A stretch of 6,925 nucleotides of DNA, from IMG/VR virus record IMGVR_UViG_2713896900_000005, positions 1 to 6,925 of that record. One strand, 5' to 3'. The notes beneath the pieces were generated by a model. The model searched no databases and had not been told where the DNA came from. It was given only the letters and a program-made list of their open reading frames with translations. Positions 1 to 6,925 of this stretch are shown here, one piece after another (the first letter of the stretch is position 1; each line of letters starts with the position of its first letter). A program made the translations under genes and the position numbers. This DNA is from a virus. Taxonomy: Duplodnaviria > Heunggongvirae > Uroviricota > Caudoviricetes.

Positions 1-70
1 GTACAGTTTTGTATCGGCTTACCTGCACCATCTTTCAGTACACCTGAAATCTGTACTGCCATACTCACTC

Positions 71-101
71 CACAAATAAAAAAGGCGCCATTTCTGGCGC
101 C
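71..101 (-). terminator. Rho-independent terminator downstream of J
   Basis: Perfect GC-rich inverted repeat GGCGCCA / TGGCGCC (84-90 and 95-101) with a 4-nt loop (TTTC). Read on the minus strand it is followed immediately by a T-run (plus-strand aaataaaaaa at 74-83 gives TTTTTTATTT). It lies about 20 nt downstream of the J stop codon (122-124). On the plus strand there is no U-tract after the stem, so it looks unidirectional. Confidence 0.75.
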
Positions 102-121
102 CGTTACGGGTTATAAATATT

Positions 122-3100
122 TCAACGGATACTGATGCCGGAAGCCGCTTTTTTGGTCACAATCACCGTACAGTCGGTGATATTGCCTGCCCCCTGATTC
201 CCTTTCTGGAAAATCTTAAACTCCAGAGTGACGCTTCCCCTGCCACCCAGCATATCAATAACCGCACTGTAACTACCGGGAATGGCCCCTTTAGTTTCTC
301 TGGATGCGATTAATACGCCGTTTTTGCGAACTTCAAAACCATAACCCGTGTATCGCGTGCCTCCGGGGTTATTTCCGCTCCCCGGATCGGTATACGCTAT
401 ACCGTTAAAAATAATGGGCGGAATAATAATCTGACGGTCAAAGTTATGATCATCGCTGATGGTGACTGTAACCGTCCCGTCTGGCGTTTCCGTGTTACCC
501 CACGTACCGACTTTTTTCGGGAAGGCTTTTGATACAGCTTTAACGAAATCCCCTCTGACCTGGGTCGCCTCCAGCATGCCCTTAATCGTACAGTTCTCAC
601 TTATCGTGACATTGTTGAGCGTCCCGGAGTTCGCATTCACGTTACCGCTGATATCAGCGTTTTTCGCCGTCAGCCGCCCGTCCGGTGTCAGGGAAAATGC
701 CGGAGGATTGCCGCCGCTGGTGATGGTCGGGGCCGTCAGACGCTTCAGGAACACGTCGTTCATGAATATCTGATCGCTCTGACCAACAAACATTGGTCGT
801 GTGTTGCCATTAGACGGATCAATAAACGCAATACGGTTAGCGGCGACAAGAAACTGGCTCAGCTTGCCTTCCTCCGTGTCCTCCATACTGAGGCCAATAC
901 CCGCGACATAATGTTTGCCGTCTTTGGTCTGCTCAATTTTGACGCCCCACATGGCATTCCACTTATCGTTGGCGTCCTGCCACTCTTTCGAAAACTCCTC
1001 CAGTTTGCTGGCGTTATCCTCCGTCAGCTCGACTTTTTCCAGCAACTCCTTGCCGAGATGGGATTCGGTTATCTTTCCTTTGAAAAAATCCAGGTAACCT
1101 TCCGCATCATCGCTCGCCCGACCGACGGCCTCCACGAACACCGATTTGCCAACGGTGTTCACACTGCGGATATAAAAGTAATAATCATGGCCCGGTTTGA
1201 TATTGATACTGGCGGCTATCCAGTACATCCCCGTACCAAGATAGCGGGCTGTGGTTTCAACCTGCCGGATATCGGCAATCCGCTTTTCCGAAAACCAGAA
1301 CTCAAACTGTACCGTCGGGTCATAAACCGCAAGATGCGGCGTGGCGGTTATCTGAAAATAACCCGGCGTCAGCTCAATCTGTGACGGCGCTGCCGGTGCG
1401 GCAATCCTGAACGATACCGACGCCGGGTCACCCTGCTGTCCCCACGCATTTACCGCCCGGACTGTCAGCCTGTAGTTCCCCGGCGCCAGTTGCCTGAAAC
1501 GATATTCGGTTTCCGTCGTCCGGGCCGTGCTGACCAGCCGCTCACTGCCGTCATCCGCTGCCACGGTCAGGCGAAGCATAAAGCTCACGCCCTTCACCAC
1601 CTTCGGCGTGTCCCATCGCGCCAGCACCTGATATTCCCCGCTGTCTGCCGAGACTTCGGCGGTCAGGTGCTGCACTGCTGGCGGCGTGACACCATTCACC
1701 GTGCCGCTCTGGTCGCCGTCAAAGTGCGCCCCGTTATCCACGATGGCCTCTTTTTCCGGTACATGCTGCACGGCGGTGATGGCATACGTGCCGTCGTCGT
1801 TCTCACGGATACTCACGCAGCGGAACAGGCGCTGGCGCAGCGTCGGCAGCTTCAGCCCCCACACGCTGTATTCGGCAACGCCGTCAGGGACCCGACTCAC
1901 TTTCACCTGCACGCCATCGGTGACAGACTGAACCTCCACGCTGACCGGATTGCCGCTTCCGTCAACCAGGCTTATCAGCGTGGTACCGGAGGCTGGCAGC
2001 ATGATTTCACGGTCGAGCGTCAGCGTCCGGGTCTGGCTGTTCACCGCAAGCACGCGCCCGCCGGTGCTGATACCGGCATAGTCATCATCGCAGATTTCAA
2101 TGACATCGCCCGGTACATGGCGAAGCCCTTCTGCGCCCACGCTGAAGTCCACGGTCTGCGTTTCCAGCAGTTCTGTTTTAATCAGCCACAGCCCGGCTCG
2201 GTGTGCCTGCCCCCGGCTGGTACAGCCAAAGGCATCCATCTTCGTGACGTTACGACCGTAACGGGCAATGGCCTGCGTGTCCTCCACAAGCTCTGTTGCC
2301 GTCTCCCAGCCGTTGTCCGGGTCAATCCAGTTCACCTCAACGGCATTATGGCGGTCCTTCAGGGCGCTGAAGCTGTAGCGGAACGGCGCGCCATCATCCG
2401 GCATCACCACATTACTGCGGTTATAGGTCCACACCTTATCCGATGGCCGGTCCTGCACGAACGTCAGCGTCTGCCCGTTCCATACCGGCATACAGCGCAT
2501 CGCCGAGCAGAAATCACTGAGCACATCCCACGCCCGGCGCTGCGTGGTCAGGTACGCATTACAGGTGATGCGCGGCTCCGTGCCACCAGAGCCATCCGGT
2601 ACCGACTGGTCGCAGTACCGACCGATGGCATACAACGCCCATTTATCCACATCCGCTGCACCAAGACGTTTCCCCATGCCGTAGCGCGGGTGGGTCAGCA
2701 TGTCCCACAGACACCAGGCCATGTTGTCGCTGTACGCTGGCTTGAACGTTCCGTCCCAGATACCGCTGTATTGCCTCGTCTGCGGGTTATAGTTCGACGG
2801 CACCTGCAGAATGCGCCCGCGAAGATGATAATTACGGCTCACCTGCTGACTGCCGAACTGTTCCGAGTCCACCTGCACGCCGACCAGTGCCGTGTTCGGG
2901 TAGCACTGTTGCACATCGATGATTTCGGTGTATGACGACCAGAGCGTTTTGTTCTGCAGCTGGTCTGTGGTGCTGTCCGGCGTCATCCTGCGCATCCGGA
3001 TATTAAACGGGCGCGGCGGCAGGTTACCCACCACCACCGAGGCCAGATACTGCGAGGTGGTTTTGCCCTTAATGGTGATGTCTTTTTCCGTCACCCAGCC

Positions 3101-3535
3101 ACCATTACGTTGTATCTGAACCAGCAGGCGAACTTCCGACGGATTCCGGTCCCCCTTTGAAGTGGTTTCCACCAGTGCCTGCACACCGAAGGTAAAGCGC
3201 AGACGGTCGATGTTTGCCGATGTGATGGTCCGGGTAATCGGCGTGTCGTACTTCACCTCCGTACCCAGCACCGTCTCGGAGCCGGAGGATTCAAATCCCT
3301 CCGGCGGTGTCTGCTCCTGCTCACCTGCCCGGAACACCACCGTGACACCGGAGATATTGGTATTCCCCTCACTGTCCAGCACTGGCGTACTGTTCAGCAG
3401 CACACTTTTCAATCCATCCACCGGACCTTCAATCGGCCCTTCACTGATGGCATCGAGCACACTCAGCAACTGCGTGGATTTCAGGTTGTCCTTCGCTTCG
3501 CGCGGGGTATGCCCCTTACTGCCACCTTTACCCAT
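122..3535 (-). CDS. J: Phage tail tip host-specificity protein J (central tail fiber), 1137 aa
   Basis: Single 3414-nt ORF. The translation is recognisably collinear with lambda gpJ over most of its length (N-terminus [24 protein letters not shown]..., internal motifs such as [39 protein letters not shown] and [15 protein letters not shown]). Length is close to lambda J (1132 aa as I recall). It sits after H-M-L-K-I as in lambda. The last ~150 residues look diverged (see findings). Confidence 0.95.
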
Positions 3536-3668
3536 AGATAATTCCCGAAACAGTAATCAATTTTATGCGAACCATATAACGACCGCTTGCAACAAAAATG
3601 CATCTGTTGTATTTCATTTGTTAAAACTTAAATCACCTTGATTAACAACACGAAATGACGGGGTATTT
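3536..3668 (+). promoter_or_regulatory. AT-rich intergenic region upstream of sodC; probable site of the sodC promoter and RBS (also holds the J translation initiation region on the minus strand)
   Basis: A 133-bp AT-rich non-coding spacer between the divergent starts of J (minus, ATG at 3535) and sodC (plus, ATG at 3669). A weak purine/G-rich stretch (gacgggg, 3657-3663) lies 5 nt upstream of the sodC ATG. Possible -35-like hexamers (TTGCAA 3587-3592, TTGTTA 3618-3623) have no convincing -10 partner at 16-18 bp, so no specific promoter is called. Confidence 0.3.
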
Positions 3669-4190
3669 ATGATAAAAAAAATACTTGCTGTAACTGCGCT
3701 ACTTAGTGGAGCCGTAATGGCTGATACAATGACGATCCCTGTAAATCTCGTTTCCTCAGAAGGAGTAGGGGAAAATCTAGGGGAAATAACTATTTCAGAA
3801 ACCAGCTACGGATTGCTGTTCACTCCTCATCTGAAAGAACTGCCACCAGGGTTACATGGCTTTCATATCCATGAAAATGCCAGTTGTAATCCCGGTCTGA
3901 TTAATGGAAAAAAAGTGCCAGCTCTTGCTGCCGGTGGGCATTATGATCCTGAACAAACAAATAAACATCTTGGGCCGTACAATCCGGAGGGCCATCTGGG
4001 TGATCTACCAGCACTCTATGTCAACTCAGAAGGAAATGCAGAAAACCCGGTTCTGAGTCCAAAAATAAAAAAAATAAGCCAGATAAAAGAACGGGCGATC
4101 ATGATTCATGCCGGAGGGGATAATCATTCCGATTCACCTGCTCCTCTGGGGGGTGGTGGCGCAAGACTGGCATGCGGAATAATTAAATAA
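3669..4190 (+). CDS. sodC: Periplasmic copper/zinc superoxide dismutase, 173 aa, phage moron
   Basis: The translation has an N-terminal signal peptide (MIKKILAVTALLSGAVMA, predicted cleavage before DTM) and the hallmark bacterial Cu,Zn-SOD motifs: metal-ligand histidines in GFHIHE, GGHYDP, HLGDLP, IHAGGDNHSD, and the C-terminal GGGGARLACGII with the disulfide cysteine. It matches E. coli chromosomal SodC in length (173 aa) and motif order but not in sequence identity. The gene is on the opposite strand to all flanking tail genes and is visibly more AT-rich (about 38% GC in the first 60 nt by hand count, against about 58% in a J sample). Confidence 0.93.
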   Translation: MIKKILAVTALLSGAVMADTMTIPVNLVSSEGVGENLGEITISETSYGLLFTPHLKELPPGLHGFHIHENASCNPGLINGKKVPALAAGGHYDPEQTNKHLGPYNPEGHLGDLPALYVNSEGNAENPVLSPKIKKISQIKERAIMIHAGGDNHSDSPAPLGGGGARLACGIIK

Positions 4191-4205
4191 CAAACAGCCT
4201 AAAGC

Positions 4206-4231
4206 AATCACCGTCATAGCTGGCGGTGATT
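4206..4231. terminator. Candidate weak hairpin between convergent sodC and I
   Basis: Inverted repeat AATCACCG (4206-4213) / CGGTGATT (4224-4231) with a 10-nt loop. It lies 16 nt after the sodC stop (4188-4190) and directly abuts the I stop codon (4233-4235, minus strand). There is no clean U-tract on either strand, so if functional it is at best a weak or leaky terminator. Confidence 0.3.
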
Positions 4232-4232
4232 A

Positions 4233-4874
4233 TCAGCGACCAATAACCACAACCTGACCACCATCCCCCTCGTCTGCCGTGCTGATCTCCTGAGAGACCA
4301 CACGTGACCCCACGCGCATTTCACCGTACAGAACAGGCAGAACATTGCCCTGGGCAACCATGTTGTCCAGTGACGAGAAATACGTGTTCTGCTTACCGTT
4401 ATTCGTTGTCTGTGTTCGGGGAGTTTTGGGTCTGGGGGCCAGCATCTGTGCCACACCGCCAAGCGTCATACTGGCACCGAGAGAAAACAGCAGATTACTT
4501 GCCATAATTCCCACCCCAGGCATCCATATAGCAACCGCCATAACAGCTGCGCCCAGCACGGCCTGAAACACGCCGCCACTTTTGGCTCCCGCCAGGCGCG
4601 GCACAATATGGATCACGGCACCATTTGCCAGCGGTTCATTAAGACGGGCTGATAATTCAGTTTCACCTGTATCACGCCCGGCAATGCGTACCTGATACCA
4701 GCCGTCGCTCAGTTTCTGACGAAACGCCGGGAGCTGTGTGGCCAGTGCCCGGATGGCTTCAGCCCCCGTTTTCACACGAAGGTCGATGCGGCGGCCAAAT
4801 CGTTGTAAATCCCCGTAAAGGCAGATGCGTGCCATGCCCGGTGACGCCAGAGGGAGTGTGTGCGTCGCTGCCAT
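4233..4874 (-). CDS. I: Phage tail tip assembly protein I, 213 aa
   Basis: ORF immediately downstream of K and overlapping it by 103 nt in a different frame, which is the K/I overlap length I recall for lambda. It contains a hydrophobic, glycine-rich segment (VFQAVLGAAVMAVAIWMPGVGIMASNLLFSLGASMTLGGVAQMLA) typical of gpI-family proteins. It is about 10 residues shorter than lambda gpI as I recall it (223 aa). Confidence 0.88.
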   Translation of the reverse strand: MAATHTLPLASPGMARICLYGDLQRFGRRIDLRVKTGAEAIRALATQLPAFRQKLSDGWYQVRIAGRDTGETELSARLNEPLANGAVIHIVPRLAGAKSGGVFQAVLGAAVMAVAIWMPGVGIMASNLLFSLGASMTLGGVAQMLAPRPKTPRTQTTNNGKQNTYFSSLDNMVAQGNVLPVLYGEMRVGSRVVSQEISTADEGDGGQVVVIGR

Positions 4875-5515
4875 TTGTCGGTATACCTCTCTCGTTTGCT
4901 CAGTTGTTCAGGAATATGGTGCAGCAGCTCGCCGTCACCACAGTAAATGGCGGCATGATTCGGCACCGATGAACCAAAACAGCACAGCAGCACATCACCC
5001 GGTTGTGCTGATGACAACGGCACCTGATACAGCCCTGTGGCCTCCAGATTATCCAGATAGAGATTCTGGCCGTTACGCCACCAGTCATCCTCACGATGAA
5101 AATCCGGCATCTCAATCCCCGCCAGATGATAAGCATCCCGGAACAGCGTGTAACAATCTGTCACCCCGTGCTCAAAGTGCCGCCCGGTGAGATGCGGCAC
5201 ACAGCGGAATTTATGAATCTCACCCCGGCAGACCAGCCACCACGGCAAATCACTCTGCACCTGCATCCGCCGGTCGGCCTCACTCAGCCAGGGCAGACCA
5301 CCGGGGTGGCTGTGGACCAGCGCCACAATCTCACCCTGCATCTCTGCCTGCAGCCAGTCTTCCGGCGACATACGGAAATACGCCTCCGGCTCACCGGAGA
5401 TATTCACGCAGGGGAAATATCTTTCCCCCTCCGGCGTGCTTACCACGAAGCCGCACGACTCCGCTGGCGCACATCGCCGGGCGTGCGCCAGAATCGCTGA
5501 TTCTGTCTCTGTCAT
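4772..5515 (-). CDS. K: Phage tail tip assembly protein K, 247 aa as the longest ORF, with an N-terminal JAMM/MPN metalloprotease-like domain and a C-terminal NlpC/P60 cysteine-peptidase-like domain
   Basis: JAMM motif read directly from the translation: E19 in AESCGF (E-x-x-G), then H68-S-H70-x7-S78-x2-D81 (HSHPGGLPWLSEAD). NlpC/P60-like catalytic candidates: C121 (GVTDCYTLF), H187 (VPNHAAIY), H199/H200. Position after L and overlapping I matches lambda. The classical 199-aa lambda K would correspond to initiation at internal Met49 (ATG at 5369-5371), which has a GGAGG 11 nt upstream; the long ORF starts 5 nt after the L stop. Confidence 0.9.
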   Translation of the reverse strand: MTETESAILAHARRCAPAESCGFVVSTPEGERYFPCVNISGEPEAYFRMSPEDWLQAEMQGEIVALVHSHPGGLPWLSEADRRMQVQSDLPWWLVCRGEIHKFRCVPHLTGRHFEHGVTDCYTLFRDAYHLAGIEMPDFHREDDWWRNGQNLYLDNLEATGLYQVPLSSAQPGDVLLCCFGSSVPNHAAIYCGDGELLHHIPEQLSKRERYTDKWQRRTHSLWRHRAWHASAFTGIYNDLAAASTFV

Positions 5516-5520
5516 GGGAT

Positions 5521-6219
5521 TTACTGCGAAAGTTTGTTAATGGAAAGGAAGCCGCCAAAGTTGCCGACGTTATTGCGAAACTTACAGCCACTCAGGCATT
5601 TGCTGCATTTATCCTTCGTGATATCGGACGTTGGCTGGTCATATTCATCCGCGACCGCCGGACCGTGATAACCGCACTCATCGCCGCGATAGGTCCAGGT
5701 GCAGGTGTTGGCCAGCATGATACGTCCCGGAAAAACAGCGCCATCCGTTTCCGTCGGCGTGGACAGTACAAAGGAGGCACTCACCGCGCTCAGTTCGCTG
5801 CACTGCTCGATGCGCCAGCGGCTGATCACCTCCTGCTCCGGGTCTGCCTCGATGTTTCCGTTGACGAAGTTCACCGCATCCAGAAAACGGGCGTAAACCT
5901 TACGCCGGACCACCGTTCCGCCGACCAGACTCTGCATATCTTCCACCATGCCGGTGACCATACCGTACAGGTTAGAAACCGTCAGCGTGGGGCGCGTACT
6001 GGTGCCTTTGCCATTCAGTTCAAAACCACTCCCCTGAATGGGATACGGCTGATACTGTCGCCCCTGCCAGGTGACCGGCTCACCTTTTTCGTTCTGCTCA
6101 TTGCAGAAAAAATAACGTTCTCCACCGACCTCTGTCAGGTCGATTTCCCAGAGCACCACGCTGGCCGACTGCTCCGCACGGGTGCATTCATTCAGTGTTT
6201 CCTGCCGGATATCCTGCAT
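5521..6219 (-). CDS. L: Phage minor tail protein L, 232 aa
   Basis: Exactly the length of lambda gpL (232 aa). Its start codon overlaps the M stop (TGATG on the minus strand at 6217-6221). There is a C-terminal cysteine cluster (C173, C182, C205, C208, C212; CTWTYRGDECGYHG...CSKCLSGCKF) consistent with the iron-sulfur cluster reported for gpL. Confidence 0.93.
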   Translation of the reverse strand: MQDIRQETLNECTRAEQSASVVLWEIDLTEVGGERYFFCNEQNEKGEPVTWQGRQYQPYPIQGSGFELNGKGTSTRPTLTVSNLYGMVTGMVEDMQSLVGGTVVRRKVYARFLDAVNFVNGNIEADPEQEVISRWRIEQCSELSAVSASFVLSTPTETDGAVFPGRIMLANTCTWTYRGDECGYHGPAVADEYDQPTSDITKDKCSKCLSGCKFRNNVGNFGGFLSINKLSQ

Positions 6220-6548
6220 CAGTTCACCACCTGTTCAAACTCTGCGCTGAACTCAACACGCAGCATACTGACCCGCGACGACCATTTTGCGCAGGTCACC
6301 TTTATCTGTCGCCACTCATAAGGCGGCGTCCACAGAAAGGCTTTCCAGCCCCCGTGCTCAGCCAGAAACGACTCCAGTACCGTGGCCTCCTCACGGGGGA
6401 CAGAAAGCGTCACGCTGTACGTTTTCAGGTTGGCATTCAGCCCGGCAGGCGCTCGCTGGGAATAGCCATCACCAAAGCGCACCTTTCTTACAGAAGGGAC
6501 CGAAGCCACATCCATACCGGGTTTCACTTTCCAGCGGAAGGTTTTCAT
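6219..6548 (-). CDS. M: Phage minor tail protein M, 109 aa
   Basis: Exactly the length of lambda gpM (109 aa). Its start overlaps the H stop (ATGA on the minus strand at 6545-6548). Position between H and L as in lambda. Confidence 0.9.
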   Translation of the reverse strand: MKTFRWKVKPGMDVASVPSVRKVRFGDGYSQRAPAGLNANLKTYSVTLSVPREEATVLESFLAEHGGWKAFLWTPPYEWRQIKVTCAKWSSRVSMLRVEFSAEFEQVVN

Positions 6549-6925
6549 CGCCCACCTCCGGAGAACAGACCACCATCGCGCATCTGCCCGGTCACAACAT
6601 CCATTGCTGCCTTACGGGCTACGTCATAAACAGCCTTCAGCGCCTGTGGCCCTATCTGCCCGTTCGTGCCGTCGTTCTGAATCACCACGTGATTGTTCTG
6701 ATTAAAATTAATGCCTTCCGCCCGCCGCATCTGCGCCGGACTTCCGGCACCGCCCACATAACCACCTTCCGCATAGCCCCGCATCAGGCGGTACAGGTTG
6801 CTGACACCAATCCGGCTGGTTGCCTCCTTCGTGAAGACAAACTCCCCGCGGTGGACAATCCCCGCTGGCTCATATTTGCCACCGGTTCCCGTAAATCCCC
6901 CGGTCGCGAAATGGAAGTTCGCCGC
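6545..6925 (-). CDS. H: Phage tail tape measure protein H, C-terminal 126 codons (partial; 5' end lies beyond the right edge of the window)
   Basis: I translated the minus strand by hand from the window edge in the frame that ends at the stop at 6545-6547; it is open throughout: AANFHFATGGFTGTGGKYEPAGIVHRGEFVFTKEATSRIGVSNLYRLMRGYAEGGYVGGAGSPAQMRRAEGINFNQNNHVVIQNDGTNGQIGPQALKAVYDVARKAAMDVVTGQMRDGGLFSGGGR. This resembles the C-terminus of lambda gpH as I recall it. The supplied ORF track shows only 6545-6784 because it starts at an internal Met. Confidence 0.85.
   Translation of the reverse strand, partial: AANFHFATGGFTGTGGKYEPAGIVHRGEFVFTKEATSRIGVSNLYRLMRGYAEGGYVGGAGSPAQMRRAEGINFNQNNHVVIQNDGTNGQIGPQALKAVYDVARKAAMDVVTGQMRDGGLFSGGGR

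Follow-up and report, generated by a model that had tools for sequence, protein, structure and literature searches.

Gene K of a lambda-type tail-tip module: a JAMM and NlpC/P60 fusion protein, and a one-base discrepancy in the lambda reference sequence

The K protein of phage lambda (gpK; "TAPK" in Iyer et al. 2006) is needed for tail assembly and is absent from virions, and structural papers of 2023-2025 describe its role as unknown (PMC10721106, PMC12617516). Its assignment to the JAMM metalloproteases was published in 2003 (PMC300881) and its fused JAB and NlpC/P60 architecture in 2006 (PMC1779556). We analyzed a stretch of 6,925 nucleotides from a tailed virus (IMG/VR record IMGVR_UViG_2713896900_000005, positions 1 to 6,925), called the window below, and in it the open reading frame (ORF) at 4772-5515, with 247 codons and a TGA stop. 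All window coordinates given here refer to the minus strand unless we say otherwise. This region belongs to a lambda-type tail-tip module, as its gene K. Its place between L and I in the order H-M-L-K-I-J is that of lambda K, it overlaps I by the same 103 nucleotides, and it encodes a protein identical at 240 of 247 positions (97%) to the full-length lambda ORF. Unlike the window protein, the lambda reference entry has 199 residues and is without the N-terminus that carries the catalytic-type glutamate.

Two further groups of proteins invite comparison. The stand-alone prokaryotic JAMM/MPN+ enzymes (PfJAMM1, 5LD9/5LDA; AfJAMM, 1R5X/1OI0; 2KKS; 2KCQ) share with K the E...HSH-x7-S-x2-D arrangement with P-x-E-x-C-G, and the same fold. 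They are single-domain proteins whose substrates are ubiquitin-like proteins of the SAMP, ThiS or MoaD type, whereas in K an NlpC/P60 domain is joined on, and the substrate is presumed to be a phage tail protein. The second half of K resembles Escherichia coli MepS/Spr and Bacillus subtilis LytE (MEROPS C40) in its full-length Pfam match, its Cys-His-His residues and its fold. Unlike these enzymes, K acts intracellularly in tail assembly and carries neither a signal peptide nor a cell-wall-binding domain. Since it acts inside the cell and does not enter the virion, it is unlikely to be an ordinary peptidoglycan hydrolase.

We consider it highly probable that K of the window is a 247-residue JAMM and NlpC/P60 protein, probably translated from the ATG at 5515 and with a predicted role in cleaving tail protein I, and that the short lambda K is a by-product of a base missing from the reference. 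As far as the window is concerned, this is correct and already known: its K protein, like clusters of thousands of relatives, is annotated in the long form as standard. Our sole addition is the explanation of the truncated lambda entry, which is an erratum rather than new biology.

The two domains of K and its N-terminus

A first-pass annotation of the window, made from the letters alone, had read K as a fusion of JAMM and NlpC/P60 protease-like domains and proposed a Pfam profile search as a check. On the 247-residue translation, Prok-JAB (PF14464, E 3e-14) scores 53.3 bits against a curated cut-off of 25 and covers residues 4-105 (5201-5506), corresponding to profile positions 4-113 of 114. 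NLPC_P60 (PF00877) scores 48.9 bits against a cut-off of 23 and covers residues 111-224 (4844-5185), or profile positions 1-105 of 105. Both matches far exceed chance and run almost end to end through their profiles, and the fusion is confirmed: K is one 247-residue protein in which a complete JAMM/JAB zinc-metalloprotease domain (about residues 1-105) is joined to an NlpC/P60 cysteine-peptidase domain (about 111-224). Its predicted mass is 28.3 kDa, and that of the short form is 23.0 kDa. When K is cut to 199 residues the JAMM-type NCBIfam match is gone. Likewise, in database clusters of 199-residue proteins the JAB call is lost and the Pfam call is NlpC/P60 only.

With E <= 1e-10 as the limit, an exhaustive homologue search among 1.84 billion representatives returned 1,750 relatives of K. 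Where these are full-length, the alignment sets in at K residue 4-10 and at the first residues of the homologue itself. Conservation was scored in a distant set of 107 full-length sequences (220-280 residues, 35-60% identical to K). P17, E19 (100 of 107), C21, G22, N38 and F47 are 87-100% conserved, as are H68, S69, H70, S78, D81, D120, C121, H187, H199, H200, S206 and R224, with G22 and N38 almost invariant. Among these residues are all those of the JAMM motif E-x(n)-H-S/T-H-x7-S-x2-D as defined by Ambroggio et al. 2004 (PMC300881): the glutamate is E19 (codon GAG, 5459-5461) in P17-x-E19-x-C21-G22, and the zinc-site motif H68-S69-H70-x7-S78-x2-D81, recognized already in the first pass, lies at 5273-5314. 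Each of these motif residues is 90-100% conserved; H68, H70 and D81 are invariant in the homologue alignment. In the second domain D120-C121, H187 and H199/H200 occur in the canonical NlpC/P60 order and are 92-95% conserved (94-95% for C121 at 5153-5155, H187 at 4955-4957 and H199 at 4919-4921), which agrees with the earlier remark that the cysteine and histidines of the C-terminal half are arranged as in NlpC/P60 peptidases.

The same annotation had proposed that E19, in the string AESCGF, supplies the JAMM-type glutamate from within the first 48 codons. Several results place it there. The Pfam JAB match begins at residue 4, and a profile of 81 K homologues compared with the PDB aligns P-x-E-x-C-G to PNEACG of 2KKS, PEEGCG of 2KCQ and VEVCG of PfJAMM1 (5LDA). 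An AlphaFold2 (AF2) model built with the homologue alignment has a mean predicted local distance difference test score (pLDDT) of 97.0 and a predicted template modelling score of 0.91; a single-sequence run gave pLDDT 37, and the alignment-based run was used. In the model, residues 1-48 make up the first helix (3-15) and two strands (21-27, 30-36) of the JAMM fold, with E19 inside it. A Foldseek comparison of the first half of K with the PDB finds PfJAMM1 (5LD9/5LDA; probability 1.00, target-normalised template modelling score 0.68-0.69, root-mean-square deviation 2.5-2.7 A over about 110 columns), and further AMSH-LP, CSN5 and Rpn11; the second half finds MepS/Spr, LytE and Acd33800. Since the model and the structural matches put residues 1-48 inside the JAMM fold, they are an integral part of the domain and no appendage to it.

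Do the codons in question evolve as protein? For codons 2-48 (5372-5512), which had been called an N-terminal extension, we compared 107 related loci and the window at the nucleotide level, 79 unique sequences in all. The ratio of nonsynonymous to synonymous substitution rates (dN/dS) is 0.24, and variable sites number 8/7/24 at codon positions 1/2/3 (chi-square p = 0.0009 against an even split). The corresponding values are 0.115 and 15/6/30 for codons 49-105, the rest of the JAB domain, and 0.047 and 16/9/51 for codons 106-213, the NlpC/P60 domain. No insertion or deletion was found in codons 1-48 of the 107 full-length loci and the window. It speaks somewhat against our reading that dN/dS of codons 2-48 exceeds that of the rest of K (0.05-0.12), with dS being lower. 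Still, the third-position excess, the low ratio and the retention of E19 in the distant set show codons 1-48 to be coding and under purifying selection. Thus neither of the outcomes that the first-pass annotation had named as fatal to it, E19 falling outside the JAMM fold and codons 1-48 behaving as non-coding, was observed.

The opposite end of the gene deserves a separate remark. In the stretch where the 3' end of K and the start of I overlap in different frames (4772-4874, 103 nucleotides), which holds K codons 214-247, the K-frame dN/dS is 4.6 and the proportion of synonymous differences (pS) is 0.005. K residues 229-247 are mostly missing from distant homologues. Here constraint appears to reside in the I frame, and the K tail appears to be a by-product of the overlap.

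The translation start of K

Two ATG codons have to be considered. ATG1 (5513-5515), the proposed start, lies 5 nucleotides (ATCCC) past the stop codon of L (TAA, 5521-5523), which would be its coupling partner. It has no Shine-Dalgarno (SD) sequence: the anti-SD duplex energy before it is +0.7 kcal/mol, compared with -10.8 kcal/mol for the neighbouring gene M and -7.2 kcal/mol for L. Met49 (ATG, 5369-5371) is the start of the 199-residue lambda annotation. It is preceded, with an 11-nucleotide spacer, by GGAGG (5383-5387), which is built from the codons of P43-E44-A45 and has a duplex energy of -9.5 kcal/mol. The first pass had described this geometry correctly on all three points (the gap after L, the lack of an obvious SD at ATG1, the GGAGG before Met49) and had favoured the long start.

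The comparison of relatives favours it too. ATG1 is kept in 79 of the 79 unique close relatives, including the three in which position 49 is CTG or ATA. In the 107 distant homologues the residue at position 49 is mostly Ile (65), with Met in 15, Leu in 13 and Val in 6. An ATG placed 15-21 codons before the catalytic Glu, and -8 to +10 nucleotides from an upstream L-type stop, is present in all 28 scorable lambda-like loci, and the same stop-adjacent arrangement recurs in 36 of 39 scorable loci of a clade about 50% identical to K. At these starts the SD is mostly weak or absent, the median duplex energy being +0.7 kcal/mol in the lambda-like loci and -3.2 kcal/mol in the more distant clade. A start farther upstream than ATG 5515 was considered and rejected; this ATG is the first start codon past the in-frame stop in the window, and the upstream candidates of relatives lie deep within L.

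Taken with the conserved N-terminus and its membership in the JAMM fold, these patterns make ATG 5515 most likely the start of K. Because a stop-adjacent, SD-poor start is conserved among K genes, the natural reading is termination-reinitiation coupled to L. Ribosomes that end translation of L would re-initiate on K at ATG1, 5 nucleotides on, with no help from an SD. Coupled and weak initiation of this kind would suit an assembly enzyme that is required in small amounts and is not built into the virion.

Some points count against this assignment. The duplex energies favour Met49 over ATG1 by sign and size, the start is assigned from comparative evidence, and GGAGG is kept in 77 of the 79 unique close relatives, so that a second, shorter product in the lambda clade is possible. 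In its explicit form the idea would be that Met49 is used as well as ATG1, giving a 199-residue NlpC/P60 peptidase with a JAMM remnant, in the manner of other in-frame nested genes of lambda. Several annotators and gene callers do choose Met49 despite an intact long ORF, and there are phages whose K consists of the NlpC/P60 domain only, according to Iyer et al. (PMC1779556). However, Met49 is replaced by Ile in most homologues and is lost in three close relatives that keep ATG1; the codons of the conserved P43 and of E44 are enough to explain GGAGG; its spacing of 11 nucleotides exceeds the optimum; and a product beginning at residue 49 would, on the model, leave the JAMM fold without its catalytic Glu and short of a helix and two core strands. 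Synonymous variation is scant among the close relatives, and a role of GGAGG as a ribosome-binding site is not separable from the coding of P43-E44. We regard nested initiation as unlikely, and return to the 247-residue product.

Predicted catalysis by K and tail protein I

What might the JAMM site act upon? Iyer et al. 2006 predicted that the K JAB domain frees the ubiquitin-like N-domain of gpI by a cut at its C-terminal glycine (PMC1779556). In the window, I (4233-4874; Pfam Lambda_tail_I, E 1e-24) has a ubiquitin-like N-domain, a Gly-rich linker and a C-domain, and is the predicted substrate or partner of K. Its ubiquitin-like domain (PF06805) begins at residue 14 of a 213-residue ORF whose ATG at 4874 has an SD of -9.3 kcal/mol; therefore I overlaps K by 103 nucleotides. 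In two lambda records, PV340536 and KT232076, I is started at the K stop (190 residues), which cuts into the ubiquitin-like domain.

In this scheme the JAMM site of K would cut tail protein I where its ubiquitin-like domain ends, while the tail tip is being assembled. In the I protein of the window, the glycine or glycines closing that domain would be G96 or G100-G101. Cryo-electron microscopy of the lambda tip resolved only gpI residues of about 134-223 (PMC10721106, PMC12617516). The portion of gpI resolved in the virion is compatible with removal of the ubiquitin-like domain, without proving it; on the other side, the N-terminal part could simply be disordered, and cleavage of gpI by K is a prediction. 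A role for K as the enzyme that cleaves gpH can be mentioned as speculation.

It could also be that one of the protease-like domains, or each of them, is a scaffold without catalytic activity, for instance a JAB domain of the MPN-minus type, and that K serves as an assembly chaperone only. Enzymatic activity of gpK is unreported, and a protein found outside the virion, with a role described as unknown, would fit such a part. But in homologues that reach down to about 35% identity, every canonical catalytic residue in either domain is 90-100% conserved, a pattern unusual for inactive paralogues, and we think a dead K rather improbable. The fuller proposal, that authentic gpK of lambda and its relatives is a 247-residue protein with a working, deubiquitinase-like JAMM site that clips the ubiquitin-like domain off I in tip assembly, we advance tentatively, its chances being in our view slightly short of even. 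If it is true, the protein used in studies and clone libraries that start from the 199-residue reference K, for example NP_040598.1, lacked the catalytic Glu and part of the fold.

The lambda reference and the surroundings of K

The lambda reference (J02459/NC_001416) annotates K at 14276..14875 with 199 residues (NP_040598.1; Swiss-Prot TIPK_LAMBD). The first-pass annotation had described this protein as one that begins at the position of Met49, and so it does. It had further treated the two starts as alternatives in the same ORF; in the reference they are not, as a base is missing. The reference has an ATG at 14133 followed by 44 codons nearly identical to the N-terminus of the window K. After 14266 it has one G fewer than the window (GGAGGC-TATTTCC), and the ORF goes out of frame three codons before Met49. 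The missing G puts the N-terminal codons out of frame, and this is why lambda K is listed as 199 residues. For the same reason the annotation gives no support to Met49: with the base missing, ATG1 and Met49 are not in one frame.

How widespread is the shorter sequence? A 76-nucleotide probe across 14266 matches exactly in only four phage records, J02459, NC_001416, OR474059 and OR974322; every other lambda or lambda-derived record shows a one-base gap. The extra G and an intact 247-codon ORF are present in PV340536 (lambda), OM418626 (lambda imm434), KT232076 (lambda), DE3 and LC730321 (48,503 bp). Species-representative genomes of bacteria were scanned as well. About 20 stray lambda contigs appeared there in unrelated organisms, and all carry the extra G. 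In most of them that gap is the sole difference from the reference over up to 3,374 nucleotides, with 0 mismatches; the exceptions are four short contigs with 1-6. In the paper on the MutaMouse genome (PMC6760142), "14266 C>CG" is one of the constitutional differences tabulated for the lambda-gt10 transgene, and the base difference is left uninterpreted. Among 3,944 matching records of complete E. coli genomes (7,232 places), none had a best match as high as 99% identity to the reference 76-mer.

The stray contigs are of some interest in themselves. They sit in assemblies of Neobacillus, Shewanella, Chromatium, Bradyrhizobium and others, and several are about 48.4-48.5 kb long at roughly 1x coverage. 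Presumably they are lambda control DNA. Public genomes are contaminated here by laboratory lambda.

That the reference differs by one base is shown by these comparisons. A one-base omission in the 1982 sequence is the parsimonious cause, and one that we infer. Two records beyond the reference itself weigh against this, OR474059 and OR974322, which carry the reference-type deletion; the former is flagged UNVERIFIED, and the latter agrees with the reference at 100% of the positions read, as expected of a reference-guided consensus. A programmed frameshift in lambda K was also considered and rejected, as the independent lambda sequences examined simply contain the extra base.

Two remaining possibilities can now be dealt with. 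Met49 might be the sole functional start, codons 1-48 being an untranslated or vestigial leader, as the lambda annotation, Swiss-Prot TIPK_LAMBD and the SD at Met49 would have it. But the codons of such a leader are indel-free and under purifying selection, and they hold six residues, the catalytic Glu included, that are nearly invariant over deep divergence; distant homologues begin 15-21 codons before the Glu, most of them without Met at position 49; and the lambda annotation itself depends on a one-base discrepancy missing from the independent resequencings examined. We find this very hard to believe. To the last possibility, that the deletion is genuine in the lambda stock sequenced, so that the short K is enough for tails and the JAMM domain dispensable in lambda, we give almost no credence, since the four records that carry it include the UNVERIFIED entry and the possible reference-guided consensus just described and are set against the extra G in five GenBank records, in the stray contigs (most otherwise identical to the reference) and in lambda-gt10 of MutaMouse, as well as the E. 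coli records, whose best matches all stay below 99% identity to the reference 76-mer.

The intact K ORF is annotated variously: with 247 residues in PV340536, with 211 from GTG37 in KT232076, and with 199 in OM418626 and DE3. Full-text searches of the literature found no paper stating that lambda K is N-terminally truncated through a reference error, and in a preprint of 2025 the accession given for the expressed gpK is still NP_040598.1. As they stand, RefSeq NP_040598.1 and TIPK_LAMBD present a K without the JAMM Glu and about a third of the JAMM domain. For testing or cloning gpK, the 247-residue form is advisable over the reference annotation. A corrected lambda reference would also clear the recurrent "14266 C>CG variant" from resequencing studies.

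Broken K frames occur elsewhere too. PV340541.1 (phage mEp332) lacks a different base: at about K codon 30 a run of five G is shortened to four, which breaks the long ORF; a 233-residue K is annotated there from an ATG in another frame. Sequencing error and real mutation are both possible. In the complete genomes of E. coli ECMA0423 and Shigella SFBU1023, the K homologues require 60-79 gap openings over about 3 kb in comparison with lambda, which suggests uncorrected long-read indel errors and not real pseudogenes.

The rest of the window follows the lambda order. The listed ORFs include the end of H (6545-6784), M (6219-6548), L (5521-6219; Phage_tail_L PF05100, E 1e-100) and J (122-3535); M, L, I and SodC were identified through Pfam. 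The K protein of the window is exactly WP_059275000.1, a 247-residue "C40 family peptidase" of Escherichia albertii in the database, and among E. coli genomes the best matches of the whole window reach about 93% identity, with roughly one tenth of the window missing from them. The element is probably an Escherichia albertii prophage.

Unlike lambda, this prophage has a Cu/Zn superoxide dismutase gene, sodC (3669-4190, plus strand; PF00080), inserted between I and J. A nucleotide match to it was sought in the phage collection, and none was found. Its product is 62-64% identical to the SodC proteins of Fels-1 and Gifsy-2, and the gene resembles a virulence-type moron carried by a prophage of the Escherichia albertii type.

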